Origin: a virus
Virus record (IMG/VR): IMGVR_UViG_3300045988_154312
Location: 160,001 to 224,000 of that record
DNA: 64,000 nucleotides
Direction: 5' to 3' (one strand)
A program made the position numbers and the translations under genes. This document shows, one piece after another, positions 1,913-31,534 of this stretch (within the stretch, counting starts at the first letter, position 1; each line of letters begins with the position of its first letter). The notes under the pieces are model-generated. The model saw only the letters and a list, made by a program, of their open reading frames with translations, did not search any database and was not told the DNA's origin.

Positions 1913-1929
1913 GGACTCCGTCCCGAAAC
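1913..1929 (+). promoter_or_regulatory. GC hairpin (TCC loop) + GAAA(C) motif copy
   Basis: GGAC-TCC-GTCC-C-GAAAC. The downstream flank TTCTTTGAAG resembles that of the 4831 copy. Confidence 0.4.
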
Positions 1930-2480
1930 ATTCTTTGAAGCAGTTATGCATATATATGCGTAACTGTCTTTAGTGAAGATATTGGGCGTTCTGCGATAGA
2001 AATGTCGCTCCGCTCCGAAATCATCTATGAGGAATTTTTATTCCTTATCGTCTTGGACCACGGAGACGTTAAATACACGCTGAGTGGTCGTCTTTGGGGG
2101 AAGCCGGACGTTAAAGGAGCTTCCCGATTTTTATAATATTATATGTGGACGGTCCATATTGAGTTATGGCGTGAGTTCGTGGTCACAGCCGTTCACATAT
2201 AATATTATCTTTCAGCTGAGCGGTAGACCCGCCGATATCGTCCTAACTTTGTCCTTAGTGGCAGTCATAGGAAGTAGAATCGGCGGGACTACAAAATGCT
2301 TCCGGTGTGGCTTATTATACACGACCGGGGGGACCGTCAGGAGTATATTTGTTACTTCTGGCGGTATATAAATTATCTATTAATGGTTAGTGGCGACCGT
2401 CCACTTTAAAATACCGGCAGGAGAAAAAGATAAAGTTGATTTAAGTTTTAAAATCATACGATAAGTATGATATCTGTAAT

Positions 2481-2771
2481 ATGTTCTTAGACTTTCTTAG
2501 CGGAAGTCTAGATTTTAAAGAATCTTCGTTAGAAGCAAAAGTAACGAATTTGTTCTTTGAAGAAAACGGAAATCTTCTAATTAATGTATCTGCTATGGCG
2601 GATACATCAATAGGAAGATTAAAATCTCTTTTACAATTCAAATTCACAGGAGAAGTTTTGTCCTGCGAGTTTGAAGGTATTGACTACACTGTTCCCCATG
2701 CACAAATCATGGGAGAATTGGTAGATGCAATAGAAAAATTGTGTCTACCTATGTATGAGGAGGAAGAATAG
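2481..2771 (+). CDS. hypothetical protein
   Basis: 96-aa ORF with protein-like composition and an acidic tail. There is no obvious SD. It is in the same frame as the next ORF, separated only by TAG at 2769-2771. Confidence 0.5.
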   Translation: MFLDFLSGSLDFKESSLEAKVTNLFFEENGNLLINVSAMADTSIGRLKSLLQFKFTGEVLSCEFEGIDYTVPHAQIMGELVDAIEKLCLPMYEEEE

Positions 2772-2843
2772 ATAAAGACCATCGATTTCAAATATAACGC
2801 AGAAAAATACTGCGTTAAAAATTTCTTAGACGATTCTGGATTA

Positions 2844-3155
2844 TTGTCCAGAAAAGTCTGGTTCGATGACCGTGAGGGGTGTCCTCACGACCGAAAGGAC
2901 CTCAGTATTGTTTCTGTTGTAGATAACATGGCAACATGTGCCTACACAGAGTTAGACAGGAATATCGGTGAATTTGTCGAGCTCACCGTAGAAGTTCCTG
3001 TCGGAAATCTTCACCTTCGCGGTTCAGAAGCCGTTGAGGTGGAATATGAACGTATCCTTTCTACTATAGATGAAGAAGCCGCGGCAATAATCCGCGGCTT
3101 AGTGTGGGAGAAGGAAAAAGATGCAGCTGTTGCCGGCTATAACGGCTGCATCTAA
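2844..3155 (+). CDS. hypothetical protein (start uncertain)
   Basis: The ORF is open from the TAG at 2769. The first canonical start is TTG at 2844, with no SD. It may be a continuation of the 2481 ORF. Confidence 0.45.
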   Translation: MSRKVWFDDREGCPHDRKDLSIVSVVDNMATCAYTELDRNIGEFVELTVEVPVGNLHLRGSEAVEVEYERILSTIDEEAAAIIRGLVWEKEKDAAVAGYNGCI

Positions 3156-3171
3156 TTTAATAGTTTATTCT

Positions 3172-3206
3172 AGAGAGCTCCATATGGGGCTCTCTTTATT
3201 TTTTAA
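3172..3206 (+). terminator. intrinsic terminator
   Basis: AGAGAGC...GCTCTCT stem followed by a T-run, just after the stop at 3155. Confidence 0.7.
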
Positions 3207-3222
3207 TAGGAGGCATACTGTT

Positions 3223-3552
3223 ATGTTAAACCGCACTGAACATTCTGTAAAAATTTATAATACCATTGGCGTAGAAACGCCAGATATGGTATTAGAACAA
3301 TACAAAGGGGAACCTATTAGAGTTTCCTGCGAATCTCGTAAAGTCGATACCATCGAAGGTATTGATATTTATGAAAATATTTATGGTGAGGTCACTGGCC
3401 TCCCAGAATTTGCGGAAGGCGTATACTACGTCGTTTCCGCTATGGTGCGTCAAGCACTACCCGGGAGAAAAGACTTACTTTCTCCTGGTCAATTAATTAG
3501 GAATGAGGCCGGACAACCAATAGGTTGCCTAGGTCTTGTTCGCAACAGTTAA
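3223..3552 (+). CDS. hypothetical protein
   Basis: ATG preceded by AGGAGG. 109 aa. The longer 3121 start in the ORF track overlaps the terminator and was discarded. Confidence 0.7.
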   Translation: MLNRTEHSVKIYNTIGVETPDMVLEQYKGEPIRVSCESRKVDTIEGIDIYENIYGEVTGLPEFAEGVYYVVSAMVRQALPGRKDLLSPGQLIRNEAGQPIGCLGLVRNS

Positions 3553-3558
3553 GTATTT

Positions 3559-3610
3559 TAGCTTTAGTCGTAGGTATATTATATATCTATGGCTAAAGCT
3601 TTATTTTTTG
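3559..3610 (+). terminator. intrinsic terminator
   Basis: TAGCTTTAG...CTAAAGCT stem followed by TTATTTTTT. Confidence 0.65.
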
Positions 3611-3692
3611 TTAATAAATATTATAATTATACTATTAATAGAGACATTGATGGCGTAATTATGATATTTATATTTTTTTTATAAATATCGTC

Positions 3693-3918
3693 CGGCGACA
3701 GGTGTCCGCCCACATTGTTTCGGCACTCACGAAATCACGTTTTTTTATAATATAACGTGAGTGTTATGTGGGCGGTACCGTATTTGCCTTCCGACGCTTG
3801 CGACGTTGGGCTCTGGGCCCGCGTTGCTTCGTCTCTGGTCGGCAAATACTCACCTGTCGCCTCTATATGTATTCCGGCAGTGTCCCTTCGGGTCGTATGT
3901 ACGGAATATATTTTTTTC
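3693..3918 (+). ncRNA. candidate structured small RNA with its own terminator
   Basis: Nested long-range helices: GCGACAGGTG (~3695) pairs with CACCTGTCGC (~3851); CCGCCCACAT (~3706) with ATGTGGGCGG (~3766); CACTCACG (~3725) with CGTGAGTG (~3757); GTATTTGCC (~3779) with GGCAAATAC (~3841). It ends in a TATTCCG...CGGAATA stem plus T7 (3870-3918). Confidence 0.5.
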
Positions 3919-3966
3919 TTATGTATGCGATCCTGCTGTGGTCGTTTACTAGTGTGTTTTTTATAT

Positions 3967-3985
3967 GACGCTCCGCGTCGAAATG
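3967..3985 (+). promoter_or_regulatory. GC hairpin (TCC loop) + GAAAT motif copy
   Basis: GACGC-TCC-GCGTC-GAAATG, about 60 nt upstream of the ATG at 4044. It is followed by a second hairpin, GAGGG...CCCTC. Confidence 0.5.
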
Positions 3986-4043
3986 TTTTATGAGGGTATT
4001 TTGCCCTCAGTATTTTATTTGTTTCATAGAGGAGGAAATTGTC

Positions 4044-4421
4044 ATGAAAAAGATTACTGTTATTAGAAAAAACGGCGTAATTGCCGATGTTGTAGTAAGT
4101 GGCACTGAAGAGCAAGGTAAAAACTTGTTTTTAGACCATCCGTTGTTCAAGAATTATTTCGTTCGGGAAGCTAGAGTATTTGCCCCAGAAACCGAATGTT
4201 GGCGGTTCAGCGTTCCTAACCATGACGACATGGAAGTGTCTGTAATCAGAAGCTCCATGACTTATGGAGGAGCAGAAGGGCTATTCGAGTTGGCGATGCT
4301 TCGCAATGATAGATGCATATATGATACGCCTATCACCAACGATGTAGTTGGTTGGCTAGATGAACAAGATGTACTGGACATCTTAGAAGATGTTCAACGC
4401 ATCTACGGAGAGGAGGCATAG
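4044..4421 (+). CDS. hypothetical protein
   Basis: ATG preceded by GAGGAGGAA. 125 aa. Confidence 0.75.
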   Translation: MKKITVIRKNGVIADVVVSGTEEQGKNLFLDHPLFKNYFVREARVFAPETECWRFSVPNHDDMEVSVIRSSMTYGGAEGLFELAMLRNDRCIYDTPITNDVVGWLDEQDVLDILEDVQRIYGEEA

Positions 4422-4422
4422 C

Positions 4423-4710
4423 ATGAAATTTATTCTTTTCGGTGAAGCTATGCCGAAGACAGAATTTAATAGCCCAGACTGCTACCATGCGTTACAATAT
4501 GTTTTGAACACCTTCTTCAAGGATTGTGTCGTTGCAGAAAATGTGACATCCTTAGAAGAAGATGTCGTAGCGGTCTGTATTCGTTCGTGGGCAAACATCA
4601 GTTCTGAAGAAGAACCGGTATCCTATGAACGTCATCCTGCATATTTATTGGACGAAGGGAGATATAACAAATTATCTCCTAGTACTCTAGCAATCATTGC
4701 TGGAGATTAG
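4423..4710 (+). CDS. hypothetical protein
   Basis: ATG preceded by GAGGAGG, starting 2 nt after the previous stop. 95 aa. Confidence 0.7.
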   Translation: MKFILFGEAMPKTEFNSPDCYHALQYVLNTFFKDCVVAENVTSLEEDVVAVCIRSWANISSEEEPVSYERHPAYLLDEGRYNKLSPSTLAIIAGD

Positions 4711-4740
4711 CCCCCCGCCGGGGCTAAACCTTCTACGGGA
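4710..4740 (+). promoter_or_regulatory. Variant GC hairpin (GCCCC-CCGCC-GGGGC) with CCTTCTACG flank
   Basis: Overlaps the stop codon at 4708-4710. It shares the flank CCTTCTACG with the 1690 copy. Confidence 0.35.
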
Positions 4741-4830
4741 TTACTATGTCGATATTTACGGCATGGTGCTCCTGTTGAAGAATATATATAGTCTTATGTA
4801 CGGCTATGTACATTTCTCTATGTATCACAC

Positions 4831-4850
4831 GCCCCCGCCGGGGCGAAATC
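4831..4850 (+). promoter_or_regulatory. GC hairpin + GAAATC motif copy
   Basis: GCCCC-CGCC-GGGGC-GAAATC, about 55 nt upstream of the ATG at 4904. It is followed by the hairpin GAGGGG...CCCTC. Confidence 0.5.
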
Positions 4851-4903
4851 TTCTTTGAGGGGTTCTTCCCTCATATTCGTCGTTCTGTGAAGGAGGAGAA
4901 AAT

Positions 4904-5068
4904 ATGTTTATCACAGGATTATATAATTATACGTTATTAACTCCAAATGGAGCTTATATTTCCGTACAAAGTACGGACGGTGTGTTTGATATTCTTCGTG
5001 AGAACGAAGGGTGTCAATTTATATCTAAAACATTAGTTGGTTATCAAAGTTGTGCAATGGCTGATTAA
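4904..5068 (+). CDS. hypothetical small protein (54 aa)
   Basis: Not in the ORF track because it is under 60 aa. ATG preceded by GAAGGAGGAG, and a terminator follows. Confidence 0.6.
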   Translation: MFITGLYNYTLLTPNGAYISVQSTDGVFDILRENEGCQFISKTLVGYQSCAMAD

Positions 5069-5074
5069 TGTAGA

Positions 5075-5107
5075 GGTGCTGGTAAGAGATTGCCGGCACC
5101 TTGCTTT
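5075..5107 (+). terminator. intrinsic terminator (weak T-run)
   Basis: GGTGCTGG...CCGGCACC stem followed by TTGCTTT. Confidence 0.5.
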
Positions 5108-5153
5108 AATTTAGTATTTGATATTTCATTATAAACATGAGGAGGTATACATC

Positions 5154-5300
5154 ATGTTAAAGAAACAATTTATTGGTTGGTTAAACGATTTTTACGCGGA
5201 AAATCCTATCACTTTCCGCATCTTTTGGTTTTTGGTGGGCTGGTTTATCGGCTCCACTGTCAAGATGGCTGTACTACAACATCGTCTAGCAAAACGCTAG
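5154..5300 (+). CDS. small membrane protein (48 aa)
   Basis: ATG preceded by GAGGAGG. Hydrophobic segment FRIFWFLVGWFIGSTV. Confidence 0.6.
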   Translation: MLKKQFIGWLNDFYAENPITFRIFWFLVGWFIGSTVKMAVLQHRLAKR

Positions 5301-5340
5301 CGGTGTAATGATTTCGCTGGAGGGTTAACTTTTGAAGTTT

Positions 5341-5358
5341 CCCCTCCGGGGCGAAATC
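5341..5358 (+). promoter_or_regulatory. GC hairpin (TCC loop) + GAAATC motif copy
   Basis: CCCC-TCC-GGGG-C-GAAATC, followed by the hairpin TGACC...GGTCA and a T-run. Confidence 0.45.
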
Positions 5359-5698
5359 TCCTGTGACCTTCTCATTAATAGTAGGTCATGTTTTATTTCA
5401 TATAAAGCTTTATATGGAATGCTATGAGGTGTATGTTAATGTACTCATAATACCTCCCTTTAATAGATGCTTAACAATCTGATATGTATCTCATAGCATT
5501 CGATATAAGGTTTTATATACCTTAAAGTAAAGCCGTAGACTTAAAAAGTCTTAAGCTGTAGAAGCCGTTGGGACCGGCTCAAAAGAATAAGGACTTTTAG
5601 TCAAACTTCTTAATAAGATGATTTAATATCATCTTTAAAATTGTATAGTCAAATGTTTTATTTGTTATACAAAGTTCCTAACCTTACGGGAGAAGACA

Positions 5699-5717
5699 GC
5701 CCCTCCGGGGCGAAATC
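5699..5717 (+). promoter_or_regulatory. GC hairpin (TCC loop) + GAAATC motif copy
   Basis: GCCCC-TCC-GGGGC-GAAATC, about 200 nt upstream of the ATG at 5918. Confidence 0.5.
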
Positions 5718-5830
5718 TCTCATGGGGCTTTCTGTGTGGAGGTCCCTTTCATACTTTTCTCCTCTCTCTCGCGGTGAGAAACTGCGGGAGATATGAGCGT
5801 TAGATGAGCGTTGACTTATCTAGCGTTGAT

Positions 5831-5868
5831 ATCTCTTGCATGTGTGTTGATGCAAGAGGAGATTTTTT
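5831..5868 (+). terminator. intrinsic terminator inside the 5918 leader (possible attenuator)
   Basis: ATCTCTTGCAT...ATGCAAGAGGA stem followed by GATTTTTT, about 50 nt upstream of the start codon. Confidence 0.6.
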
Positions 5869-5917
5869 CACCACGAGAAGCTCAGTCGTGGTACTTTCAA
5901 AGAAAGGAGACATTTAT

Positions 5918-6625
5918 ATGTCTAAATTTGCAAACGTTGTATGTTATTTGTTCGGCTCCAACTCTAATGGTTGGGCACAAATGTTATCCGCTGTTGTAGA
6001 GGGTGTTCCTGGTGTCCGTGACACCAAACCTGTCAGAATTGAAACAGCAGGTCAATCTTATGTGGGTATGGGCTGTAATGCCGTAGCCCAAATCTTGGAG
6101 TTGTTCGCCAACAAGTCCGTTAATTACGGACAGTTCACTGGTGAAGTAGTGACTAGCGACGCTGTCGCTATCCGCTGTTATTCTATCATGAAAGCTATTA
6201 AAGATGGCTTAACGCCAGCTAAAGTAGCTGACCATGTTATGAAAGAAGCGGATACAGCTGAAGACCGCGAGCAGTTTAAGCGTCTTGCTATGGCAATCAA
6301 AGACTGTCAAAGCCAGGGTGTGCGTCTTCGCATTAGCCGTCTTTCCCAAGAGCACAGTTATGCTCTTGAGGTGCCAGAAGGAGTAGAACTCCAAGCTGGC
6401 GACGTGGTCAAATTTGACCGCGGTGTATCCGAAGACGGTGTCAAACTTGCGTATGGAGTGCAATCCAGCTACGCTTATGAAGTGGCTGAGGTCAATGATG
6501 AGCTTAAAGCTCTCAGACCTAAAAACACTCCAAATAGCAAGCACAGAATGGCGTGCGTTAACGCCACTCTTAACTTGATTCGCGAAATCAAGGCAGAAGA
6601 GGTCTCCGCAGAAGACCTCATCTAA
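5918..6625 (+). CDS. hypothetical protein
   Basis: ATG preceded by AAAGGAGA. 235 aa. The upstream extension to 5804 covers the leader terminator and was rejected. Confidence 0.75.
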   Translation: MSKFANVVCYLFGSNSNGWAQMLSAVVEGVPGVRDTKPVRIETAGQSYVGMGCNAVAQILELFANKSVNYGQFTGEVVTSDAVAIRCYSIMKAIKDGLTPAKVADHVMKEADTAEDREQFKRLAMAIKDCQSQGVRLRISRLSQEHSYALEVPEGVELQAGDVVKFDRGVSEDGVKLAYGVQSSYAYEVAEVNDELKALRPKNTPNSKHRMACVNATLNLIREIKAEEVSAEDLI

Positions 6626-6629
6626 CATT

Positions 6630-6656
6630 GGGGGCATTTTGCCCCCTTTATTTTTA
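6630..6656 (+). terminator. intrinsic terminator
   Basis: GGGGGC-ATTTT-GCCCCC followed by TTTATTTTT. Confidence 0.8.
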
Positions 6657-6678
6657 TTAGTAAAGGAGGGAGCCCCTG

Positions 6679-7167
6679 ATGGCTACTTTTAATATTAAGC
6701 ATTCCAACCAATCTATTCTTGACTATATGAGAGAAAAGATTACGGTTGAGTATAATGGCTCTGTCGAAGATGTCGACGGAGGCATTAAAGTTGAGGTTGA
6801 TGACAATCACCTTAAAGACATTACGGACGCATTCAGCCGTGCGAAACGTAATGCCATGTTCTCAGGCTGGGTAAAATCTGCCACTAAGTTTGTTGGCAGA
6901 CAAGCTGACACTGTGAAAGATGTCGGCATCGGTGCAGTTGGCATTAGCGCCAAAGGTATCTTTGGTGGTCTTAAAAAGACTGCTGAAGTAGCTATGGGTG
7001 CTACTGCTGTAATCGTAAACGAGGGTAAAGAAGCTTGGAAAGAAGCTTCTGTGAGCGATGAGCTCAGAAACCTCAAGAAATCCTTCGGTAGTACTGGCAA
7101 TGATACAGAAGGTATCGAAATCATTAAGGAAGATACTGTAGAAAATACTGCTGGCGAAAGAGCCTAG
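6679..7167 (+). CDS. hypothetical protein (Gly/Ala-rich central region)
   Basis: ATG preceded by AAAGGAGGGAG. 162 aa. Confidence 0.7.
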   Translation: MATFNIKHSNQSILDYMREKITVEYNGSVEDVDGGIKVEVDDNHLKDITDAFSRAKRNAMFSGWVKSATKFVGRQADTVKDVGIGAVGISAKGIFGGLKKTAEVAMGATAVIVNEGKEAWKEASVSDELRNLKKSFGSTGNDTEGIEIIKEDTVENTAGERA

Positions 7168-7639: not shown

Positions 7640-8740
7640 TTATTAAGGAGCGAGCGTCAGCGAGCGAATGTATATTTGTTTGTATATAAGCCCGAGCGAG
7701 CGAAGCGAGCGGAGGGCGTTTATTAGGTTCTCTGTGTACTCTCTTCCAAGAGAGTAGTTTTGTTTATTATTTGTATTGTAAGGCGAGCGAAGCGAGCCGT
7801 TAATATTCTTTGTTTACTTTCTTCTTAAGAAAGTAAGTATTGTATTATTTATTAGTAGTAGTTCTCTGCTATCTCTCTTGTAAAGAGAGTAGTTATGTAT
7901 TATATATATTTATATATGTAGATTCTCTGTTATCTCTCTTCTCAAGAGAGTAATTAGTTATTTATATATATATGTATCATAATAGTATTAACGCAGCGAG
8001 CGAAGCGAGCGGAGTATCTGTTATGTATAGTATATAGTTATTCCCGACGAGTGAGGAGGATACGACGAGCGAGTTGTAGTGTCCTAGCGTAAGCGACGAT
8101 CATAAGAGTATATATTTATATATTATATATAGGGCGAGCGAAGCGACCGTCAGGGAGCGGAGCGAGCATAGTATTATTATATAATATATTATAGGGAGCC
8201 TCAGCGACCGGAGTATATATATAGTCTTATAGGAGCTAGATAGGCAATAAGGATTGATAAGGATTTAGTATATCGTGATATAGTATATCGTATTATACTA
8301 TAGTAGTATATAGTCGATCCTTATTTACAGTAAGAAGGAAAAATCGGCCTTGAATTTCTGGAACCGAAGGTTTTAAAAAATTACGATATTTTCCGCCCGG
8401 GAGTATCTGTATCATATATATAGTAGGGAGCGTTAGCGACCGATGGTATCATATATATACGTTAGTATATATTAAGTATTTTCTGCCGTCGGTATTTTGT
8501 TAAAAGAGAGACTAGTATATGTAATAATAGCCGCTTAGGATATTATGGTTTATATATAATATGTTTTTAGTTAATGTTTTTACTGTACATATTATATGTA
8601 CAGGTATTAAAAACTTTTAGGGTGGGATATCTTATAATAATATTGAACGTCAGTGAAATGTTATTATAGATTTAAATCTTATATTAGATATAATTTTAAT
8701 GAGAGCTATTAATGTGAAGAATAGGGAGCGCCGCGAATCT
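7640..8740. repeat. Dispersed GCGA-rich islands (GCGAGCGAAGCGAGCG-like) in an AT/TATA-rich background
   Basis: Copies near 7648, 7691, 7781, 7991, 8045, 8131, 8192, 8424 and 8721. Three of them are followed by GGAGTAT(C/A)T. Confidence 0.8.
7728..7953. repeat. Four copies of a ~30-nt hairpin unit (TTCTCTG..CTCTCTT-loop-AAGAGAG)
   Basis: Units near 7728, 7811 (variant ACTTTCTT/AAGAAAGT), 7862 and 7922. Confidence 0.7.
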
Positions 8741-9524
8741 ATTCAGCTATTAAAATTCTTAGTCGACACGATAGTATAGTATGGTAGAGATCGTGTCGAT
8801 AGGTTACGAGTGCTAACGAGTTATATGTAGAATTCGTTATTAAGAATAGTGTTATCGATGTAGCTTGCGAAGAGAAATAGTATTCTTTAGAATTCGTAAC
8901 AATATATCTAATGCGTTTGTGTGTCTATCGATATATATCAAGAAAATATATACCGACGTGTGCGAATGGAGTTTACGAAGTGTGGCACGCAATCAATTTT
9001 TATATCTCGTAACGAAGCCGTTTACGGTTCGTATTAGTATTATATATAGCGAAGCGAACAATGTAAGCGGAATGTAACTATATAATATTTAATACGAATT
9101 ATACCAAAGTATTAGAAGTTAGTAAGCGTCTAATAAGTAGGTGGTTTTTTGTTTGGGATCCGCCGTTATCTTAGTATTTCATTTACTAGCTAAGGTATTT
9201 AAAAGTCCCTTGCGTTTATTTTAGTCGAGTTATTATTTAATATATATTATATATAATAATAACGAAGAGCCATTACTGTTAAGAATGGATAGTAGACGAA
9301 ATTGGGAACGGGCCCCAATAATAGTTATTAGATTTTTAATATAATAACGTTAATGGTTCGTCGTGTACGATCCTCTGCGAGTTGTTTATCTTCACAGCAG
9401 ATTAATTACTATTAAGAGTTTGGAGCATTTTTAAAATGGGACAACATTTTGTTAGTATTCTTTGTCTATATTATATATATAAAAAAAAGACCCCCATGGG
9501 GCCGTTATATATTGTTTTGTATCT

Positions 9525-9561
9525 GGAGCGGTGAAACTTCGTTTCACCGGTATATTACTCA
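9525..9561 (+). repeat. Conserved 37-nt element, copy 1 (GGAGCGGTG hairpin CACCGGTATATTACTCA)
   Basis: Stem CGGTGAAAC/GTTTCACCG with a TTCG loop, and conserved flanks. Confidence 0.8.
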
Positions 9562-9684
9562 TGCTTGAGTAAGAGTTATTTAAAAAATAAAAAAATATGT
9601 CAGAAAATAAAAAAGACCCCGAAGGGCCGTTTTTATATAATTATTTTTTTAATGTTCAGCTGTCGCTATCAATAATAAATTATT

Positions 9685-9722
9685 GGAAGCGGTGTAACGT
9701 AGTTACACCGGTATATTACTCA
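9685..9722 (+). repeat. Conserved element, copy 2
   Basis: Stem CGGTGTAAC/GTTACACCG, with a compensatory A:T to T:A change relative to copy 1. It has the same GGTATATTACTCA flank. Confidence 0.8.
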
Positions 9723-9846
9723 CTTTAGATGCTTAGTTGTCAAAAAATAAAAAAATATTTTTTATTTAATTATATATATAGCAAACAATAAAAAAAAACA
9801 GCCTTAGATTTTTATATCCAAGACTGTTTTGTGTGTGTAAATTTCA

Positions 9847-9881
9847 GGAGCGGTGAACTGCGTTCACCGGTATATTACTCA
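9847..9881 (+). repeat. Conserved element, copy 3
   Basis: Stem CGGTGAAC/GTTCACCG with a TGC loop, and the same flanks. Confidence 0.8.
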
Positions 9882-9985
9882 TATTAGTATATCATTAATT
9901 AATTTTGTAAAAATAATTAAATATTCATTATTAATGCATAATTGAAAGTACGGATATTTTTAAGTAAAAAAAATACAAAAAATTA

Positions 9986-10011
9986 AAGTCAGATAATATC
10001 TGGCTTTTTTT
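9986..10011 (+). terminator. intrinsic terminator after element copy 3
   Basis: GTCAGAT-AAT-ATCTGGC followed by T7. Similar A-run/stem/T-run hairpins lie at ~9481-9506, ~9608-9635 and ~9790-9832. Confidence 0.55.
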
Positions 10012-10633
10012 AATTTTGGTGTCGCCTGCGGTATATATAGGAAACAATAAAACATAATATACAGAATATGTATATTTATGAATACGAGCTTTTTTCAAAA
10101 GCGTTCTTCGACCATAGCTTACTCCGAAAAGTTTAAATGAAACGTCGTAAGCGTAGTAGTGACGCGGGTTTTTAATAATTTTATGTATAAGATTATTTAG
10201 GGTTAGGAACGATCGATATAAAAATTGCTCCCTTAACAGTTCTTATTCATCTCTTATATATACTATATATATAATATAATAATATTTATTTTTTTAAATA
10301 GTCCGCCGTCTCCTCACGAGCGCCAACACCAGTTATTTATTGCTTTATATACTATATATATAGGTAAAGCTATGGCTTTGTTCGTGCAGAAGATACGGCT
10401 CTTGGACTATAGGTGATACTGACTATACAGTATGCTCCCTTGGGGGGTGGGGGGAGTCAGTAACACTCTCAAGTTAGTTATTTTTATCTAAAAACTAATA
10501 AAAATCGTTTATGGCTATTAAAATGATCATAAGTCCGCAACACTTTAAAATCTCCCTTTAACAGCTAAAAACTAGTATTTTTTAAAATATCAAGTTGCTT
10601 TTATTTGCTATATTTTAGCCTATTTTCATATTA

Positions 10634-10689
10634 GATGTATTTGGTCCGATGTATTTGGTCCGATGTATTTGGTCCGATGTATTTGGTCA
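10634..10689. repeat. 4 x 14-bp perfect tandem direct repeat (GATGTATTTGGTCC), iteron-like
   Basis: Read directly from the sequence. The last copy ends in A instead of C. Confidence 0.95.
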
Positions 10690-11015
10690 CATAATATATT
10701 TAATTAGCGTAGCGTATTACTATATATATCATTAATCTGTTATAGCAACTTTATTAGTACTTAATAGCTGTATATAGTCATATATATAGTTTATTGTTAT
10801 ATTATATATATGGTTTAATATATATTATTAGTATTAAGTTATATTATATATTGCTATACTATGTATATATAATAGTATTAGTATATATGTATTATGTTAT
10901 TATATATTGTATTAAGATATATAATTAAGAGAAACTATTAAATGGAAAGATGCGGGCGATTTTGTATATGGTATTTTATATCAAGTCGTTCACGGATCCG
11001 TATATGGATTTTTAA

Positions 11016-11204
11016 ATGTATTGTATTTTGTCGGAGGAAAATATTATTTTAATAATATCAGCAGTAATTATGTTTTTACTATATAAATTAGGCAATAAAT
11101 TATTTAAAGAGCACTATTATAACAGTCGATTAAAAACTATATATTTAATTTTATGTTTTATAATAGTATGCATATTAATTAGACTATTATATTTATATAT
11201 ATAA
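11016..11204 (+). CDS. small membrane protein
   Basis: 62-aa ORF with two hydrophobic segments. No clear SD. Confidence 0.4.
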   Translation: MYCILSEENIILIISAVIMFLLYKLGNKLFKEHYYNSRLKTIYLILCFIIVCILIRLLYLYI

Positions 11205-11222
11205 GATTAATATTCTTTAGTG

Positions 11223-11240
11223 CGTGCTCCGCACCGAAAT
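11223..11240 (+). promoter_or_regulatory. GC hairpin (TCC loop) + GAAATC motif copy at the head of the small-gene array
   Basis: GTGC-TCC-GCAC-C-GAAATC, about 47 nt upstream of the ATG at 11287. Confidence 0.5.
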
Positions 11241-11286
11241 CTCCCGTAGTCCTTTTTTGTTGTATAGGAGTTAATGAGCGTAGCGA

Positions 11287-11487
11287 ATGAATCAATATTT
11301 AGTCGATCAGATTGTCGACCATAGCGACTGGATACGGTATACGCGTCCAAGGAAGATGTGTTATTCTGACGATATAAGCAAGAAATATGATCTAGATAAT
11401 ATAATCGTAGCAATTAGCGAAAGTTATTATAAATATAGTGCTGAATTATATTTACAATATTATATGTATTTAATAGTAGCAGAATAA
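11287..11487 (+). CDS. Tyr-rich C-terminal motif family, member 1
   Basis: 66 aa. C-terminus KYSAELYLQYYMYLIV. Confidence 0.6.
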   Translation: MNQYLVDQIVDHSDWIRYTRPRKMCYSDDISKKYDLDNIIVAISESYYKYSAELYLQYYMYLIVAE

Positions 11488-19126: not shown

Positions 19127-19185
19127 AAGCGAACATATATCCGCTTTTAAGAATTTATGCAGTTTAATAATAATAGCAGGATTTT

Positions 19186-19214
19186 TTGTAAAAAAAAGTA
19201 TTTTATGATATAAT
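19186..19214 (+). promoter_or_regulatory. SigA/sigma70-type promoter
   Basis: TTGTAA, a 17-nt spacer ending in TGA (extended -10), then TATAAT. It lies in a 120-nt gap after a weak hairpin. Confidence 0.6.
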
Positions 19215-22970: not shown

Positions 22971-22980
22971 GAGGTATTTA

Positions 22981-23926: not shown

Positions 23927-23992
23927 ATATGTTTAAGAAATTCATGAATGAATTGCGTTGGTATATTGAAGAACTATTAAAGGAAATTTAAT

Positions 23993-25538: not shown

Positions 25539-25587
25539 TAAGTTAAGCTAGGGCTGTCACTAATTTACCACCATTTACTTTACGGTT

Positions 25588-25605
25588 GGGCTCCGCCCCG
25601 AAATC
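25588..25605 (+). promoter_or_regulatory. GC hairpin (TCC loop) + GAAATC motif copy
   Basis: GGGC-TCC-GCCC-C-GAAATC in a 115-nt gap, about 50 nt upstream of the ATG at 25654. Confidence 0.5.
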
Positions 25606-25653
25606 TCTTCACACGTTTTCTAATGTGGTTTAGTTAGACGAAAGGAATATATT

Positions 25654-26007
25654 ATGCAACAGGTAACATTTGAATCTAAAGAACAAGCTAAAGAGTTTTT
25701 TATTGCTTTGGGTGAAAATCTTAAAGCCAGTCAAAACAAAATTTTTGAATTTAGTGGTCAACAATGGAACTTCGATAAAACTCCAGAAGTAACACCTAAT
25801 ATTATTAATGCTGTATTAGTATCTGAAAACAACGTACTATATGTAACAGCTAATTTAAGTAATGATACAGTATATTCCGATATTGATTTAGAAGATAATA
25901 TCTCTGGATTTAGTTATAATCAATTACAAAAATCTGTATTATTGTCTAATTTAGTATATATTATATTAGAAGATTATACTCAATTTATGTTCTGTAAAAA
26001 TGAATAA
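25654..26007 (+). CDS. hypothetical protein
   Basis: 117 aa. SD GAAAGGAA. Confidence 0.65.
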   Translation: MQQVTFESKEQAKEFFIALGENLKASQNKIFEFSGQQWNFDKTPEVTPNIINAVLVSENNVLYVTANLSNDTVYSDIDLEDNISGFSYNQLQKSVLLSNLVYIILEDYTQFMFCKNE

Positions 26008-26383
26008 TAAAACCAGTTCTAGATTACTTAGTGCAATGTTTTTTAACGTGAGCTTTTTCCAATCGAGAATACCAGCATTAATAATAGGTGACCGACGTTT
26101 TAAAATCGATTTTGATGTTGACGATGGATCTAATATTATTGTACGAACATACGATGATTTTTTTAACGAACAAGTTATATTTTTTAGTACGAGGTTAATG
26201 GCTGTCGAATCGATGACTCAGCTCTCGACAAAAGAAGAAGATGCATTATTTTCTGGTTTAATACATCGTACGGTTATCCCGAAAAAATTATATTCAGAAT
26301 TCGATACGTACAGAATATTAAAACAATTTAATTTATACGTGCAGTATATAATATTTTCATTTAACTATATGCACTGGAGGTGA
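26000..26383 (+). CDS. hypothetical protein
   Basis: 127 aa. Confidence 0.6.
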   Translation: MNNKTSSRLLSAMFFNVSFFQSRIPALIIGDRRFKIDFDVDDGSNIIVRTYDDFFNEQVIFFSTRLMAVESMTQLSTKEEDALFSGLIHRTVIPKKLYSEFDTYRILKQFNLYVQYIIFSFNYMHWR

Positions 26384-26387
26384 TAGT

Positions 26388-26672
26388 ATGATTCAATTAG
26401 GTTTTGGATCTGATAAAGAAACAAAAGATGTATATAATAATTTAAAAAAATTAATTGAAAAAAATATGTTCCCAGAATATGCTATTACAAATTTCGAAGA
26501 AAATAAGGCATGTGATTCTTTTTCATTTACGATTGAATACGACGAAGAATGTATATATTCATATACTATATGGTACGAAGCCGGTATCTTATATATCGAA
26601 CCAGAAAAAGAAGATTACGGCACGGAAGATATTGCATTTATTTTATATCCGATTGCCGAAATGTTATTGTAG
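26388..26672 (+). CDS. hypothetical protein
   Basis: 94 aa. SD TGGAGGTGA. Confidence 0.7.
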   Translation: MIQLGFGSDKETKDVYNNLKKLIEKNMFPEYAITNFEENKACDSFSFTIEYDEECIYSYTIWYEAGILYIEPEKEDYGTEDIAFILYPIAEMLL

Positions 26673-26686
26673 AAAGGTCGACGTAT

Positions 26687-26779
26687 ATGTTAGCATTATT
26701 ATTAGCCATATTTTTAATGGTATATTTAGCATTAGCTATTGGAGGAACATTAGCTGGCTGGGACGAGAAAGAAAAATAA
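26687..26779 (+). CDS. 30-aa hydrophobic peptide
   Basis: MLALLLAIFLMVYLALAIGGTLAGWDEKEK. SD GAAAGG upstream. This is the tail of the alternative-frame ORF 26549..26779. Confidence 0.4.
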   Translation: MLALLLAIFLMVYLALAIGGTLAGWDEKEK

Positions 26780-26780
26780 T

Positions 26781-27014
26781 ATGGATCAGTTCTATATAGA
26801 TTTTGCATCATTAATAATATTCATAATAATATTTTTAATGTTTATATTAATTATATATCTTTTACATACTACATATAGAATATATAAAACAAAAAAAGTA
26901 TTAGATTCATTTGACTATACACTTAAGATGTATTATCGAATGTTTTTTAAATTTTGGACAATATCAATATTATTTTTCGTATGTGGCATAATCATTAAGA
27001 GTATATTAGAATAA
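26781..27014 (+). CDS. small membrane protein (2 TM segments)
   Basis: 77 aa with two long hydrophobic segments. Confidence 0.6.
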   Translation: MDQFYIDFASLIIFIIIFLMFILIIYLLHTTYRIYKTKKVLDSFDYTLKMYYRMFFKFWTISILFFVCGIIIKSILE

Positions 27015-27325
27015 TGTATTTAAAAGATCTAATAAATTGTGTAAACAATTGTAAGATAAATGATGAAAAAAATATATATCTATTAAAGAATGAAAGATTT
27101 CAAATATTTATGCTTATTTCTATTGTAGATAGTAGTTTACGATTTTCAATATATGATCTTCATTCGTCAAACACAACTGTTTTAGAACTAGAAGCACAAA
27201 ATAAACATAGTTTGCATGAATGGCATGGATATACTGTATGGTTAGAAGATTTTAAAAAGAAACTACCTAATATGTGTACATACTTAGCATATTTGTATGT
27301 TTTTAATATAAACAAAAATGAATAG
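27014..27325 (+). CDS. hypothetical protein
   Basis: 103 aa. TAATG overlap. Confidence 0.6.
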   Translation: MYLKDLINCVNNCKINDEKNIYLLKNERFQIFMLISIVDSSLRFSIYDLHSSNTTVLELEAQNKHSLHEWHGYTVWLEDFKKKLPNMCTYLAYLYVFNINKNE

Positions 27326-27962
27326 AATAAAAATAGAAGATAAAATATTTTTTAAGCGGTTCGAAGTATTTCGAAGTAGTAATCGTAATCGTATTACGAT
27401 GAGGCGACGAAAATATAAAATTCATCAATATTATACGACCGAAGGATCTCGATACGAAGTATTAGATCGAAACGAAGTTTGTATCGGAGTTTTTAAAATC
27501 GACGAAGTCGAACAGTTTATGTATTCTGTCGATTTAAGCGAAGAAGATTTGCTATTAATTATTAAAGGTATAGAAAATGTTATTTATTCATATCGTATTC
27601 CGTTAAAGTACGATGGCTATTCGTCTTTAGCATATATTGAAGAAGCTGTTAATCAGTTACAATTTAATAATGTTATTGTTATCGGAGATCATAAAGTAGC
27701 ATTTGAATTAAATCGAGTTAACGACACTATCGGAGAAATTAGAATCGAAGCTAGAACTACTAATATCGATATGTATAATATGCAGATGATATTACAGTAT
27801 CAGTTCTACGATAATTGCATGCATATATTTTGGTATAAAACATTAGTAAAAAGCAAAGAAAAAACATATAAGATATACTATAAATTCTTAATAGCTTTAT
27901 GTAGCTTAATACAATATCAATACATTAATTGTATATTAAGCGTAGAAAGAATTCCGTTTTGA
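27318..27962 (+). CDS. hypothetical protein
   Basis: 214 aa. Confidence 0.65.
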   Translation: MNRIKIEDKIFFKRFEVFRSSNRNRITMRRRKYKIHQYYTTEGSRYEVLDRNEVCIGVFKIDEVEQFMYSVDLSEEDLLLIIKGIENVIYSYRIPLKYDGYSSLAYIEEAVNQLQFNNVIVIGDHKVAFELNRVNDTIGEIRIEARTTNIDMYNMQMILQYQFYDNCMHIFWYKTLVKSKEKTYKIYYKFLIALCSLIQYQYINCILSVERIPF

Positions 27963-27969
27963 GGTAAAT

Positions 27970-28269
27970 ATGGATACATATATTAGAATTACAGACTGGG
28001 CAATATGCCAGCATTTTGAAATGTTAATTAATACTCATCGAACAACTGGTAAGTTTACTATCGAAGACTTAGACAATGTATCGTGTGAAATTGCATATGA
28101 CAATGCATATCATCGATTACATATATTAATCGACGAAGATAATTATTTTATTAGCGCAATATATGATGCTAATGTAAAAACATTATATTGGAATGTTGAA
28201 AATAATATTTCGTTTGACGATTTTGAAAAAGTATTACAGGGAGCTCAATATGTTAACCCTGTCGCTTGA
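27970..28269 (+). CDS. hypothetical protein
   Basis: 99 aa. SD GAGG upstream. Confidence 0.65.
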   Translation: MDTYIRITDWAICQHFEMLINTHRTTGKFTIEDLDNVSCEIAYDNAYHRLHILIDEDNYFISAIYDANVKTLYWNVENNISFDDFEKVLQGAQYVNPVA

Positions 28270-28471
28270 AACACTTGAATATATAAAAATATTTTTAGAT
28301 ATAATTTTAGGAGCGTTGTTAGGCGCAGGTATACATTTTTTACTTACAAAATATGTCGATAAAATATATAACGTATATAATGAAGACGGCGATATTAAAT
28401 TATTGTTAACAGTATTGCCATCGACTATTATCGTATTAATGCTATGGAGTATTATTGTATGGATGAGATGA
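28250..28471 (+). CDS. small membrane protein
   Basis: Internal ATG after GGGAG. 73 aa with 2 hydrophobic segments. Confidence 0.55.
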   Translation: MLTLSLETLEYIKIFLDIILGALLGAGIHFLLTKYVDKIYNVYNEDGDIKLLLTVLPSTIIVLMLWSIIVWMR

Positions 28472-28746
28472 AATTACAATTAGAAGTATTATATAAAATC
28501 TTAACATTAGATTTTCATAAATTCTATCGTCGGCAAAAAGGATCGTATGACCTAACTATTAAAAAAATAAGTGATGCTGCTCTCGTTACGGTTGACTGGA
28601 ACGAAAACAAAGATTTCGTTAAATTCCAGATTTACTGGAATTCAGAAGAAAGACACGTAAACTTTAGTTTTAATTTCGATACGAATAAAACAGATGCATT
28701 ACTTATCGTAAAAGATTTGTTGCGAGGCAATGAAGATAATGATTGA
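28468..28746 (+). CDS. hypothetical protein
   Basis: ATGA overlap start chosen. 92 aa. Confidence 0.55.
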   Translation: MKLQLEVLYKILTLDFHKFYRRQKGSYDLTIKKISDAALVTVDWNENKDFVKFQIYWNSEERHVNFSFNFDTNKTDALLIVKDLLRGNEDND

Positions 28747-28763
28747 TATAAGGAGGTATTTTT

Positions 28764-29048
28764 ATGGGAATGATTAACGAAATTACTAATAAATTAATTG
28801 GCGTTAAAGGCCGTATTGCATTTGAACACAAAGGATATATTGTTTATATCGATAATTCTCGTAAGAAAGAAGTCGATAGCGGCGATATTCAGATCTTTAA
28901 AGATCGCGAACAAGTATACGATTATTCTATCGCATATCCTTGTAAAGAATGTAAATCTAAAGGTATTTACAACAATAAAAAAGATAAATTTATTAATAAT
29001 ATCGATCTAGAAAAACTGTACGAGATTATTATGACAACGGATTTATAA
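28764..29048 (+). CDS. hypothetical protein
   Basis: 94 aa. SD AAGGAGG. Confidence 0.7.
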   Translation: MGMINEITNKLIGVKGRIAFEHKGYIVYIDNSRKKEVDSGDIQIFKDREQVYDYSIAYPCKECKSKGIYNNKKDKFINNIDLEKLYEIIMTTDL

Positions 29049-29049
29049 C

Positions 29050-29697
29050 ATGATTTTTCTAAAAGATAAATATCGAATTGTTCTAGATAAAAGAAACGTA
29101 ACATCAATTATCGTTACGGCATTAACTGTGCTATTTTTTGTGTTTTGTGATCTTAATTATGCTACCGATAATGAAAAACTGGTATTATATCAAACGCCGA
29201 TATTAATTATCGTCGTAAGTATTATTACAATCGATATGTTACCTAGTAAAGTTAATCCATTTCATGCTGATAGTTTAATATTAAGTAGAATTGATGAAAA
29301 ACAAGCTGATAAAGTATTCGAAATATTTAAAAATACTTTCGATTTTATAATACATGAAATATTCTATTCTCCACATGAAATGCATTTAGAAATTGAGAAT
29401 ATTTCGATCGGTCAATTAAAAGATATAACATTATCAATTAATGCTAGATACGTAATGGATACAGGCATTAGAACTATACTTATTGATATAGCGATATATA
29501 AATTAGATAAAAATAATTCTTTAGTGTCTTTTTTTATACCATTGTCATCTAATGTTCCTAAATCTATTAATGAAATGCGAATTTCTAAAAATTTAGCACA
29601 ATGGACAGATATTATTATATTTACTAAAACAATAGAATATTATTTATTAAATCATCAATATAACGGAGCTATTAAAAATGAAAAAAGAAGAATTTAG
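29050..29697 (+). CDS. membrane-anchored hypothetical protein
   Basis: 215 aa with N-terminal hydrophobic segments. Confidence 0.6.
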   Translation: MIFLKDKYRIVLDKRNVTSIIVTALTVLFFVFCDLNYATDNEKLVLYQTPILIIVVSIITIDMLPSKVNPFHADSLILSRIDEKQADKVFEIFKNTFDFIIHEIFYSPHEMHLEIENISIGQLKDITLSINARYVMDTGIRTILIDIAIYKLDKNNSLVSFFIPLSSNVPKSINEMRISKNLAQWTDIIIFTKTIEYYLLNHQYNGAIKNEKRRI

Positions 29698-30082
29698 ACA
29701 ATTATGTTGGCTATTTCGACTATTTTTAATAGCTATCGATATTGAAAATTATCAATCAAAAGATTTTAAAATCGGCGAATTTAAATATGCTCTTAGATTA
29801 ACAGCTGTCGAACATATTCTTCATATCGAGTTGTTAAAGAAAAATAATCCGATCGTTGCTTCGTTATCAGGTGTTGATTATTTTCCGCAGGAATCGTTAA
29901 GTTTTAATTTTAGAACGAACGATATATTAAACGATTATTTCGAATTATTCTTTGACGGTAGTAAAGTAATTGAAGAAAATCTTAATATACTGTATAATAT
30001 ATCATATAATATATGTAATCCTGTAGAAATAATGAAAGGACTAGTTAATAACAATGGTCGGAAGAATAAAATTTACTGGTAA
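29678..30082 (+). CDS. hypothetical protein
   Basis: 134 aa. Confidence 0.55.
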   Translation: MKKEEFRQLCWLFRLFLIAIDIENYQSKDFKIGEFKYALRLTAVEHILHIELLKKNNPIVASLSGVDYFPQESLSFNFRTNDILNDYFELFFDGSKVIEENLNILYNISYNICNPVEIMKGLVNNNGRKNKIYW

Positions 30083-30368
30083 GCTAAGTGCTATTAATAG
30101 AATTAATAATGAATTATTGAATAAAGATATGTTCGCAGGCAATTGTATCGTTAAAGAAAAAATTCGTTGCGATAATATTTTAATGCTAACAATCGAAACT
30201 GATTACGATATTAATTCTGCATATTTAGTTTCATTAAGCGATACATATCATGTGAATATCGAATATAGTATTAGCAATCATGTCGATCATATAAAACATA
30301 GTGGTATTATTGTATTCGAACATAATAAAGCTGAAATCGTAGAAGAAAAGAAATTTACATATGAATAA
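30054..30368 (+). CDS. hypothetical protein
   Basis: 104 aa. Confidence 0.55.
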   Translation: MVGRIKFTGKLSAINRINNELLNKDMFAGNCIVKEKIRCDNILMLTIETDYDINSAYLVSLSDTYHVNIEYSISNHVDHIKHSGIIVFEHNKAEIVEEKKFTYE

Positions 30369-30819
30369 AAAATTAAATCGAAAAGTATTTTTCTCGATCA
30401 AACATAATATGTTAATGAATTCATTTTGTCGAGACTATAAGTTTAAAAACTTTGAAATTTCGGCTTATAAGACAAACATAAGATTGTTTAATAAAGAAAC
30501 CAAATTGTTAAAAATTGCTAATAGTTGTAAAACGTTAGAAACGTTAGTTAATACATACGAAGAATTAAGACAAGTCGGTATGATTATATGGCTATTAGGC
30601 TTTTACGCATTTCAATTAGATAAAGATTTAGATGTTAAAAAACATTTTAAACTATTCGAAGAAATCGAAAAAGTAACATTAACACAACCATTAAACTTAA
30701 GTCCAGACGATATTCAGATCCGTCAGTTAAGAGAGTCGTTAGAACAAGCAGCCAATAGAATTAATGCACAAATAAATTTTTGGTCGAATATACTTCCCGA
30801 AAGGAATGGTGGTCGATGA
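30361..30819 (+). CDS. hypothetical protein
   Basis: 152 aa. Confidence 0.6.
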   Translation: MNKKLNRKVFFSIKHNMLMNSFCRDYKFKNFEISAYKTNIRLFNKETKLLKIANSCKTLETLVNTYEELRQVGMIIWLLGFYAFQLDKDLDVKKHFKLFEEIEKVTLTQPLNLSPDDIQIRQLRESLEQAANRINAQINFWSNILPERNGGR

Positions 30820-31493
30820 ACGGAAGTTTACGTAATTTATTTAAACGTCATCGTCAAAACTTTAATCCAGAAAGTTTATTACGCGATCTAAAAAAAGATC
30901 AGAATAAAAAAAATCTGGTCGATAAAATTAAAGAAATGGAGGAAACTAGGAAAGCAGAAGTGTTAGAACCTGAACGAAACAACTATCCTCAGTGTAAGGT
31001 CGATTTGGTCGCACAAGTACAAAAAGAAATCGAAGAAGAAAATACTCCGAATGAACCGGCGGACGATATTCAAGAAATTTCAGTACATGCTGATTGTCCG
31101 ACCGTATCGTTAGATAATTGGACGACAGAAGAACTTGTGCGATCGATTCAAAAAGGTAAAGAAGCCGCTAAACATATCTTACAAAATTATGAGTTCTGGA
31201 ATAGTATGGTCAAAGAATGCGATCAGGCATTAGGCGATTTGCGTCATTTCGCAGAATTCTACGACGATGCGACACAAGAAGAAATTAATAAAGTATATAC
31301 CTTAATGACAGAGTACAGTCGTAAACGTCGTGTATATAAAGACCGTGTCGAAATCTTTAAAGACATGTTTGCTGGCAAAACTAGATTTGAAAATATCTAT
31401 GCACCAGTTAATCAAATGTCTAATAAATTTAATAAGATGAATATTGAGCGTCAGTATTCTCCACGGATACTTAAGGACTTGTTCGAGCGTTAG
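30816..31493 (+). CDS. hypothetical protein
   Basis: ATGA overlap start. 225 aa. Confidence 0.65.
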   Translation: MNGSLRNLFKRHRQNFNPESLLRDLKKDQNKKNLVDKIKEMEETRKAEVLEPERNNYPQCKVDLVAQVQKEIEEENTPNEPADDIQEISVHADCPTVSLDNWTTEELVRSIQKGKEAAKHILQNYEFWNSMVKECDQALGDLRHFAEFYDDATQEEINKVYTLMTEYSRKRRVYKDRVEIFKDMFAGKTRFENIYAPVNQMSNKFNKMNIERQYSPRILKDLFER

Positions 31494-31515
31494 TCACGTT
31501 CTACATTATCCTTCT

Positions 31516-31534
31516 GGGGCTCCGCCCCGAAATC
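31516..31534 (+). promoter_or_regulatory. GC hairpin (TCC loop) + GAAATC motif copy
   Basis: GGGGC-TCC-GCCCC-GAAATC. The stem is the strand-swapped version of the 5699 copy, with the same loop and flank. Confidence 0.5.

Follow-up and report, generated by a model that had tools for sequence, protein, structure and literature searches.

A small hairpin motif recurs along one strand of a 64,000-nt stretch of viral DNA (positions 160,001 to 224,000 of IMG/VR record IMGVR_UViG_3300045988_154312; hereafter, the window). Its canonical copies consist of a GC-rich stem, a loop that is nearly always TCC and an adjoining CGAAAT, and the cluster of copies begins directly downstream of a gene for a predicted phage RNA polymerase. 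The motif, described in a first-pass annotation of the window, is real, conserved and structured, and stronger than it first appeared. In the favoured reading, to which we give an even chance, the copies form a promoter family for the phage's own RdRP/YonO-like two-barrel RNA polymerase. Held more tentatively, and at somewhat below an even chance, is the further proposal that a C(GGA)G DNA mini-hairpin of the template strand, together with CGAAAT, makes up the first promoter class for the RdRP/YonO/crAss-gp66 branch of polymerases, convergent with the hairpin promoters of phage N4.

All eight copies listed in the annotation were recovered where it had placed them and with the stems it had given. 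Its count of at least eight is exceeded by two extra canonical copies, at 1795 (loop TGCT) and 2001 (2-bp stem). The annotation had also proposed a covariance-model check over the whole genome and its relatives. A 31-nt model (R1), built from 43 distinct copies from the window and relatives and run with filters off, recovered the motif, giving 11 matches in the window at E<0.01: 10 canonical copies and one variant (4709). All 11 are intergenic, lie on the + strand and fall between 1.8 and 31.5 kb, and no match was found in the 32-64 kb part of the window, the next best match anywhere in the window having E=0.53. The pattern TCCGNNNNGAAAT occurs seven times in the window, against 0.57 expected from shuffles, and none of 100 shuffles reached seven.

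The refined consensus is NNNC-TCC-GNNN-C-GAAAT-(C/T)-(T/A)YYYN-TGAG. The innermost stem pair is always C:G, G-A-A-A is invariant, and the T after GAAA is more than 90% conserved. Two details of the earlier description needed adjusting: of the proposed 4-5 bp GC stem, 4 bp form the stem proper and the fifth pair exists in some copies only, and the C before GAAAT, listed as optional, is present but as an invariant base with an unpaired role rather than as part of a pair. The loop has 3 nt in all canonical window copies except 1795, and among GC-rich hairpins of the phage family's DNA that have a 3-nt loop and are followed by GAAA, it reads TCC in 203, GCC in 14 and TCT in 1. For the loop at 4831, previously given as CGCC, a GCC triloop with the usual C:G closing pair (CCCC-GCC-GGGG) is the better reading, as in relatives that carry GCCCC-GCC-GGGGC. 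The heptamer GCTCCGC is found in five window copies, in one of which the stem is otherwise lost.

Copies at 1.8-5.8 kb precede small genes, and most come with a second hairpin (P2). The first, GGCAC-TGCT-GTGCC-GAAATT at 1795..1826 (+; 22.3 bits, E 4e-4), has a 4-nt loop, and its orthologues read GTGC-TCC-GTAT, with top-strand G:T wobbles. It is followed on the same strand by GGAC-TCC-GTCC-C-GAAAC at 1909..1939 (33.1 bits; P2 at 1931..1977) and TCGC-TCC-GCTC-C-GAAATC at 2001..2031 (24.3 bits; P2 at 2027..2048). The latter keeps two stem pairs and the heptamer, and its imperfect stem is preserved alike in five related loci (L002, L003, L004, L048 and L122). Further along the + strand are GACGC-TCC-GCGTC-GAAATG at 3964..3994 (39.3 bits; P2 at 3991-4009; start codon at 4044), CCCC-GCC-GGGG-C-GAAATC at 4829..4859 (37.2 bits; P2 at 4856-4873; start codon at 4904), CCCC-TCC-GGGG-C-GAAATC at 5337..5367 (39.0 bits; P2 at 5363-5389; no open reading frame (ORF) directly after) and GCCCC-TCC-GGGGC-GAAATC at 5696..5726 (37.5 bits; P2 at 5724-5746, then terminator-like hairpins at 5796-5859).

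The remaining copies, likewise on the + strand, stand at the edges of larger gene blocks. GTGC-TCC-GCAC-C-GAAATC at 11220..11250 (31.3 bits; start codon at 11287) is the first copy after an ORF-poor repeat region and heads a block of small ORFs of about 14 kb. GGGC-TCC-GCCC-C-GAAATC at 25584..25614 (32.2 bits; start codon at 25654) precedes a second block and is conserved in more than 30 related loci. The last copy, GGGGC-TCC-GCCCC-GAAATC at 31513..31543 (38.2 bits), marks the border between the small-ORF block and the DNA-metabolism genes. The two variants with a CCTTCTACG flank that had been reported at 1690 and 4710 are present, and they are just two sites. At 1690..1713 (+), ACCC-TCC-GGGT is followed by CCCCCC-TTCTACG instead of CGAAAT; it sits at the polymerase stop codon and matches the model weakly (8.5 bits). 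At 4709..4739 (+; 19.7 bits), GCCCC-CCGCC-GGGGC followed by TAAAC-CTTCTACG lies at the stop codon of ORF 4390-4710, a single orthologous site that is conserved in relatives. TTCTAYG was considered as a second shared element and rejected, as it is not enriched (21 found against 22.5 expected).

The claim that the stems covary held up: stems that differ keep pairing, both among window copies and across orthologous sites in relatives. At least 11 Watson-Crick combinations occur at the three variable stem pairs. In alignment A1 these pairs are of GC, CG, AU and UA types, with 67 cells changed on both sides, and the 100% pairing seen there is partly by construction, because A1 was selected for pairing. 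Independent support comes from relatives that were fetched via neighbouring proteins and not via the motif. For example, the orthologous site at 5699 reads GCCCC/GGGGC in the window, GCAC/GTGC in L002 and GGGC/GCCC in L006.

No Rfam covariance model matched at the motif, either at gathering threshold or at E<=1. Other structured elements were rejected as identities for it. A hammerhead or other ribozyme of the stem-GAAA type lacks CUGAUGA or any other core upstream; a clustered regularly interspaced short palindromic repeat (CRISPR), Cas6-type hairpin or repeat-mimic RNA is discounted by stems that vary among copies and by the lack of an array; and for a miniature mobile element or IS200/IS605 end, the copy flanks are unrelated and the sole transposase (37494-38594) is far off.

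The gene at the head of the motif cluster (11..1690, +) is cut by the window start and encodes the C-terminal 559 amino acids of a predicted RdRP/YonO-like RNA polymerase, including a Pfam YpsA/SLOG domain. A full-length orthologue of 1488 amino acids (L006:7211-11677) scores 27.5 bits with Pfam RdRP (PF05183; cut-off 23.8) and carries DYDTD at 686-690; two further proteins, P0105 (25.8 bits) and P0108 (26.6 bits), also exceed this cut-off. The homologues fall into three lineages with a mutual identity of only 25-30%, across which RxPHAGE and GGSDxDxD are invariant. In the window's lineage the enzyme is one 1488-residue chain with a C-terminal SLOG domain, and in the other two lineages it is encoded by three separate ORFs (about 369, 464 and 350 amino acids). 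The split polymerases have no SLOG domain (L157:6395-9984 (-); L156:3936-7520), and the phages that carry them resemble the window in their early regions (about 86% identity). Among 1.84 billion representative proteins, a profile search found only 11 relatives, the most distant being single chains of about 1150 amino acids that independently match Pfam RdRP. Given the Pfam RdRP matches, the DxDxD loop and the motifs invariant across lineages, the encoded enzyme is predicted to belong to the RdRP/YonO/crAss-gp66 branch of two-barrel RNA polymerases. The polymerase matched PDB sequences (phmmer) and phage genomes (tblastn) through the SLOG domain only. Directly before the polymerase gene there is also a conserved protein that carries an RNase H1 N-terminal (hybrid-binding) domain.

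Motif and polymerase gene are linked in position. The first motif copies follow the polymerase stop codon by no more than about 100 nt in each of the three lineages. Run over 316 kb of relatives, the model gave 100 matches, all gene-oriented and all downstream of the polymerase gene; none was found in the 4-10 kb upstream of that gene. This layout resembles phage T7, in which class II promoters lie directly downstream of gene 1 and host terminators are read through: there, too, a cluster of promoters for a phage polymerase begins right after the polymerase gene. T7 promoters differ in being 23-bp duplex sequences with no hairpin.

The position of the motif relative to genes is also informative. 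As had been claimed, five copies stand at a regular distance from a start codon, with 46-59 nt between the end of GAAATC and the start codon. Measured from GAAA, the next start codon lies 51-64 nt away in these five copies, and the stop codon before the motif is anywhere from 19 to 415 nt away. A near-constant distance to the start codon and a variable distance to the stop codon tie the motif to the downstream gene. The second hairpin noted after most copies was confirmed as well. P2 begins about 10 nt after GAAAT and has a semi-conserved 5' arm, (A/G/T)TGAGG. It covaries and has several top-strand G:U wobbles, for instance in P2 2027..2048; the frequency of these wobbles, together with the covariation, indicates a transcribed RNA structure. 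If transcription starts at the motif, P2 fits a 5'-proximal stabilising hairpin.

The terminators reported between motif and gene were likewise confirmed, at 31552 and 5832. An intrinsic-terminator-like hairpin with a T7 tract (31552..31577, +) separates the last copy from the ATG at 31589; it is the sole intergenic + strand terminator call in 13-32.5 kb and takes the P2 place of copy 31513. The 1.7-7.8 kb region is terminator-dense, with 40 found against 7.6 expected. One strong terminator (3560-3600) lies about 360 nt before copy 3964, so that initiation is needed at this copy in any case. Between the two is a GC-rich non-coding segment of about 210 nt (3690-3900), in a genome of 31% GC, which shows long-range complementarity (ggcgacaggtg...cacctgtcgcc; gtccgcccacat...atgtgggcgg) and has no Rfam match. 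A nested GC hairpin, GGGGCCTCCTGACGGAGAGTCCCCTGCGGGGC, at 1838-1886 between copies 1795 and 1909 is conserved in divergent lineage C (L079 ~6630-6665).

The core of the motif is identical to that of N4 hairpin promoter P2 as printed in the literature. N4 promoters have a GC-rich heptamer centred at -11 and flanked by inverted repeats. Their template bases are -8G, -9C, -10G, -11G and -12A, the loop contains a sheared G:A pair, and the stretch of four A residues before +1 serves as a ruler. The template oligonucleotide of N4 promoter P2 reads 5'-...AGCCAAAAGAAGCGGAGCTTCAAC-3' (also given as 5'-...CCAAAAGAAGCGGAGCTTC-3'). On the RNA-like strand this promoter is GAAGC-TCC-GCTTC-TTTT-G(+1), which can be set beside GGGGC-TCC-GCCCC-GAAA-T-C of copy 31513: the two share the loop, the C:G closing pair, the inner GC pair, the 5-bp stem length and a 4-nt spacer. 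More generally, the bottom (template) strand of the motif gives C(GGA)G, a 5'-GGA-3' loop closed by C:G, and the top strand reads C-TCC-G in 203/218 cases. The N4 template loop (-10G, -11G and -12A, with -9C:-13G closure) is thus present here. C(GGA)G corresponds to the GNA mini-hairpin, which has a special stability that allows extrusion of N4 promoters at physiological supercoiling, and by this analogy it may do the same in the window. We know of no comparable special stability for a UCC RNA triloop.

Other likenesses extend to N4 P1-P3 and to the early and middle hairpin promoters of LUZ7. All are small GC hairpins with a 4-7 bp stem and a 3-nt loop, show the GCTCCGC heptamer on the RNA-like strand, leave stem bases free to vary if paired, have about 4 nt from the stem to the +1 position, and occur as tandem copies clustered in the early region. 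The N4 geometry of a 5-7 bp stem with a 3-nt loop is found here in those copies that add a fifth pair to the 4-bp stem, and LUZ7 promoters accept stems of 4 bp or more. The differences are equally clear. The spacer is GAAA rather than TTTT, and the invariant CGAAAT and the TGAGG element have no N4 counterpart. The enzyme here is RdRP/YonO-like with two barrels, and that of N4 (Schitoviridae) is a T7-like enzyme of 3500 amino acids. No genes of N4 type were seen, genome size is about 230 kb, and the host is probably a Gram-positive oral Firmicute. A search for a giant T7-like virion RNA polymerase (a gp50 homologue), as the first-pass annotation had suggested, found no such ORF in the window or flanking loci.

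The proposal of an N4-type hairpin promoter therefore survives in part: the C(TCC)G core is present and a phage RNA polymerase gene lies upstream, but the enzyme is not of N4 type and the +1 base is T. Because the cognate enzyme differs, the motif would be N4-like in its working and not a member of the N4 family. The remark that either a hairpin promoter or an antitermination site would be unusual for a phage of this gene content needs revision, because that content includes a dedicated non-canonical RNA polymerase. In the literature searched, hairpin promoters are reported for N4-like phages only.

Under the promoter reading, the template strand of each copy would fold into a 4-5 bp GC mini-hairpin with a C:G-closed 5'-GGA-3' triloop, the unusually stable d(C-GNA-G) fold used by N4, exposed through negative supercoiling or single-strand binding proteins. 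Recognition by the polymerase would rest on the hairpin's shape, on the invariant C(GGA)G and on the CGAAAT next to it, which is likewise invariant. RNA synthesis would start about 8-20 nt 3' of the loop, in CGAAAT or in the following Y-rich/TGAG stretch, so that transcripts would begin a few nt before P2. As an RNA structure, P2 could then protect the 5' end of the transcript, with the Shine-Dalgarno sequence and start codon following 46-59 nt after the motif. Host-type terminators, for example that at 31552, may not stop such a polymerase.

Several observations weigh against this reading. Where stems are imperfect, top-strand G:T wobbles account for about four events and bottom-strand wobbles for one, too few independent events to decide the folding strand, and the excess leans weakly towards an RNA or top-strand fold. 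Of the distinct copies, only about half have the template -8G required in N4 (on the top strand, TCCG is followed by C in about 47%, by G in 26% and by T in 26%), and the +1 equivalent, 11 nt from the loop centre, is a near-invariant T and not the G of N4, an unusual initiating base. The motif is unchanged between lineages whose polymerases differ by 70-75%. The two-barrel fold was not confirmed by an AlphaFold model of the middle subunit from a shallow alignment, which was unusable (predicted local distance difference test score 42), and a profile of the catalytic region had no match among PDB sequences. Terminator-like hairpins stand after two copies and before the gene, an order that also fits antitermination. 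Finally, the DNA inspected amounts to about 75 kb of a genome of about 230 kb.

That order of elements leads to the alternative that survives best, an RNA-level processive antitermination signal (nut-, rrn- or put-like), which we nevertheless consider unlikely. A UCC-loop RNA hairpin and the single-stranded CGAAAU-YUUCUNUGAG would load a phage or Nus-type factor, leading to terminator read-through. Lambda nut, rrn boxB-boxA and HK022 put are indeed comparable, each with a hairpin and a linear element between genes, upstream of terminators, and with covarying stems; the hairpin-then-linear order here is that of rrn boxB-boxA. The hairpins after the motif at 31552 and 5796-5859, in addition to the terminator density of 1.7-7.8 kb, would give such a signal something to act on, and read-through is needed anyway for gene 6679, which follows directly on a terminator with no room for a promoter. 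The top-strand G:U preference of imperfect stems and the clear RNA character of P2 point the same way. A boxA-like TTCTTTGA is found in a minority of copies (window 1925 and 4845) and resembles the Firmicute rrn boxA, TGTTCTTTGAAAACT.

However, the column consensus at the boxA-like stretch is only YWYYYNTGAG, and the stretch is variable (TTCTATGA, TCCTGTGA, CTCATGGG) and partly buried in P2. The loop differs in sequence and size from those of the known systems, a UCC triloop standing in place of a purine-rich loop of boxB type, and the invariant CGAAAU has no boxA counterpart. Known systems use one or two sites per operon, but 10-11 copies occur here within 30 kb, with tandem copies 92-113 nt apart. 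A U-tract is missing from most P2 hairpins, no N-like protein was identified here, and the antitermination reading leaves unexplained both why the motif is tied to the polymerase gene and why it matches the N4 DNA core exactly. Thus, of the nut-like alternative that was first put forward, the terminators after two copies and some instances of TTCTTTGA speak in its favour, and the UCC triloop and the 10-11 copies against it.

Slightly less probable again is an RNA processing or stability site, at which a host or phage endoribonuclease would read the hairpin and CGAAAU in a polycistronic early RNA and cut nearby, giving monocistronic or shorter mRNAs whose new 5' ends are shielded by P2. There is precedent in the early RNA of Bacillus phage SP82, which RNase III cuts at intergenic hairpins, but a 4-bp stem is too short for RNase III, and no known nuclease recognises a C(UCC)G triloop. 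Copies 11223, 25588 and 31516 lie 19-50 nt after stop codons with no terminator between, and the constant spacing to the next start codon and the position of P2, about 10 nt downstream as for a 5' stabiliser, are also in keeping with processing. However, copy 3964, about 360 nt past the strong terminator at 3560-3600, would still require a promoter, and the N4 DNA-core identity and polymerase-gene linkage would be coincidences.

Improbable, and below both of the above, is a site at which the phage polymerase terminates or pauses, or a DNA-level site (an operator, or a one-strand priming or nicking site): the strictly single orientation, the intergenic placement and the variants exactly at stop codons (1690 and 4709) would suit it, but the spacing follows the downstream start codon and not the upstream stop codon, and a terminator, operator or origin fits poorly because CGAAAT stands right after the GC hairpin where an intrinsic terminator has its U-tract, tandem copies (1795, 1909 and 2001) make little sense for termination, compensatory stem changes speak against a duplex-DNA operator, and iteron-like and AT-rich origin-like repeats lie elsewhere, at 7.8-10.9 kb.

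The promoter reading can also be set against what is reported for other two-barrel phage polymerases. In vitro, the gp66 enzyme of crAss-like phage phi14:2 is inactive on duplex DNA and efficient on DNA that is single-stranded or has been denatured, and its early transcripts showed no shared upstream motif. For YonO of SPbeta the promoter was left undefined, and P23-45 (gp96/gp64) has linear AT- or GC-rich promoter motifs. These enzymes share with the window's polymerase the superfamily, as judged from the Pfam RdRP match and DxDxD loop, and the lack of a sigma factor. Their sequence similarity to the window-type enzyme is below the reach of BLAST, and none is reported to use a hairpin. By analogy, the need of gp66 for a single-stranded template makes a hairpin promoter plausible for the window's enzyme.

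A related element may exist among more distant polymerase homologues. Contigs L162 (52% GC) and L164 (38% GC) carry eight and seven intergenic + strand copies, respectively, of TGGGTG(C/T)-YTYNYGAR, most of them 47-135 nt upstream of start codons and often with a hairpin after. The downstream half of this element resembles GAAATC-TTCTATGAGG of the motif. In SPbeta, the 240-bp stretch between the P_YonO primer-extension primers contains TTATGAGGGTGCGAGG, which is a lead and not a test; no TCC-loop hairpin was found near the SPbeta YonO start site. A sequence similar to the element, TGAGGGTGC, lies in the SPbeta region used for mapping the YonO start site (L045 ~20437, minus strand). An element of the TGGGTG(C/T)-YTYNYGAR kind may be a common promoter element of YonO-type polymerases.

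The window (30.8% G+C) comes from a novel large phage. Megablast of the window against phage genomes gave no match, and its helicase shares about 35% identity with the Bacillus, Listeria and Staphylococcus phage enzymes. The longest related IMG/VR contigs measure 230-236 kb, and the phage family is common in human samples and metagenomes (100 protein clusters, many contigs of about 230 kb), one family protein being filed under Mogibacterium diversum. No tRNA or tmRNA genes were found in the window.

Other features of the window were recorded along the way. The region at 7757-11016 is a 3.3 kb stretch without convincing ORFs. Its repeats comprise a 61-bp unit present 2.3 times (7837-7973), a perfect 14-bp GATGTATTTGGTCC present 3.9 times (10634-10688) and degenerate AT-rich repeats (10771-10923), and minus-strand terminator-like hairpins lie at 9.5-9.8 kb. 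By its sequence features, the region looks like an origin or genome terminus. Within it, 9289-9459 (+) matches Rfam RF03053 (OTKONC RNA) at 138.5 bits (E 9e-23), under the gathering threshold of 141.4; the literature searched holds no mention of this RNA family. In the small-ORF block, 19128-19214 (+) holds a terminator-like hairpin and, after it, a host-type promoter close to consensus (TTGTAA-17-TATAAT with TG extension), so the host polymerase may transcribe part of this region. Among the DNA-metabolism genes, a 366-residue ORF (37494-38594, +) matches the phage transposase family phrog_506 (E 1e-129), so that an insertion element is probably present there. An HNH endonuclease is located at 57223-58407.

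Published studies describe no promoter motif by which the sigma-less two-barrel phage polymerases YonO and crAss gp66 would find their start sites; a compact, covarying motif locked to the gene for such a polymerase offers a directly testable candidate promoter. If the N4-like mechanism is true, the GNA mini-hairpin would have been reached independently by two polymerase folds that are unrelated, suggesting that there is a general physical way to open DNA when no sigma factor is at hand. An orthogonal pair of promoter and polymerase, once defined, could also be of practical use. If the promoter reading is true, the motif would represent the promoter class of a widespread phage of about 230 kb that probably infects human oral Firmicutes and whose polymerase is either fused or split into three subunits.

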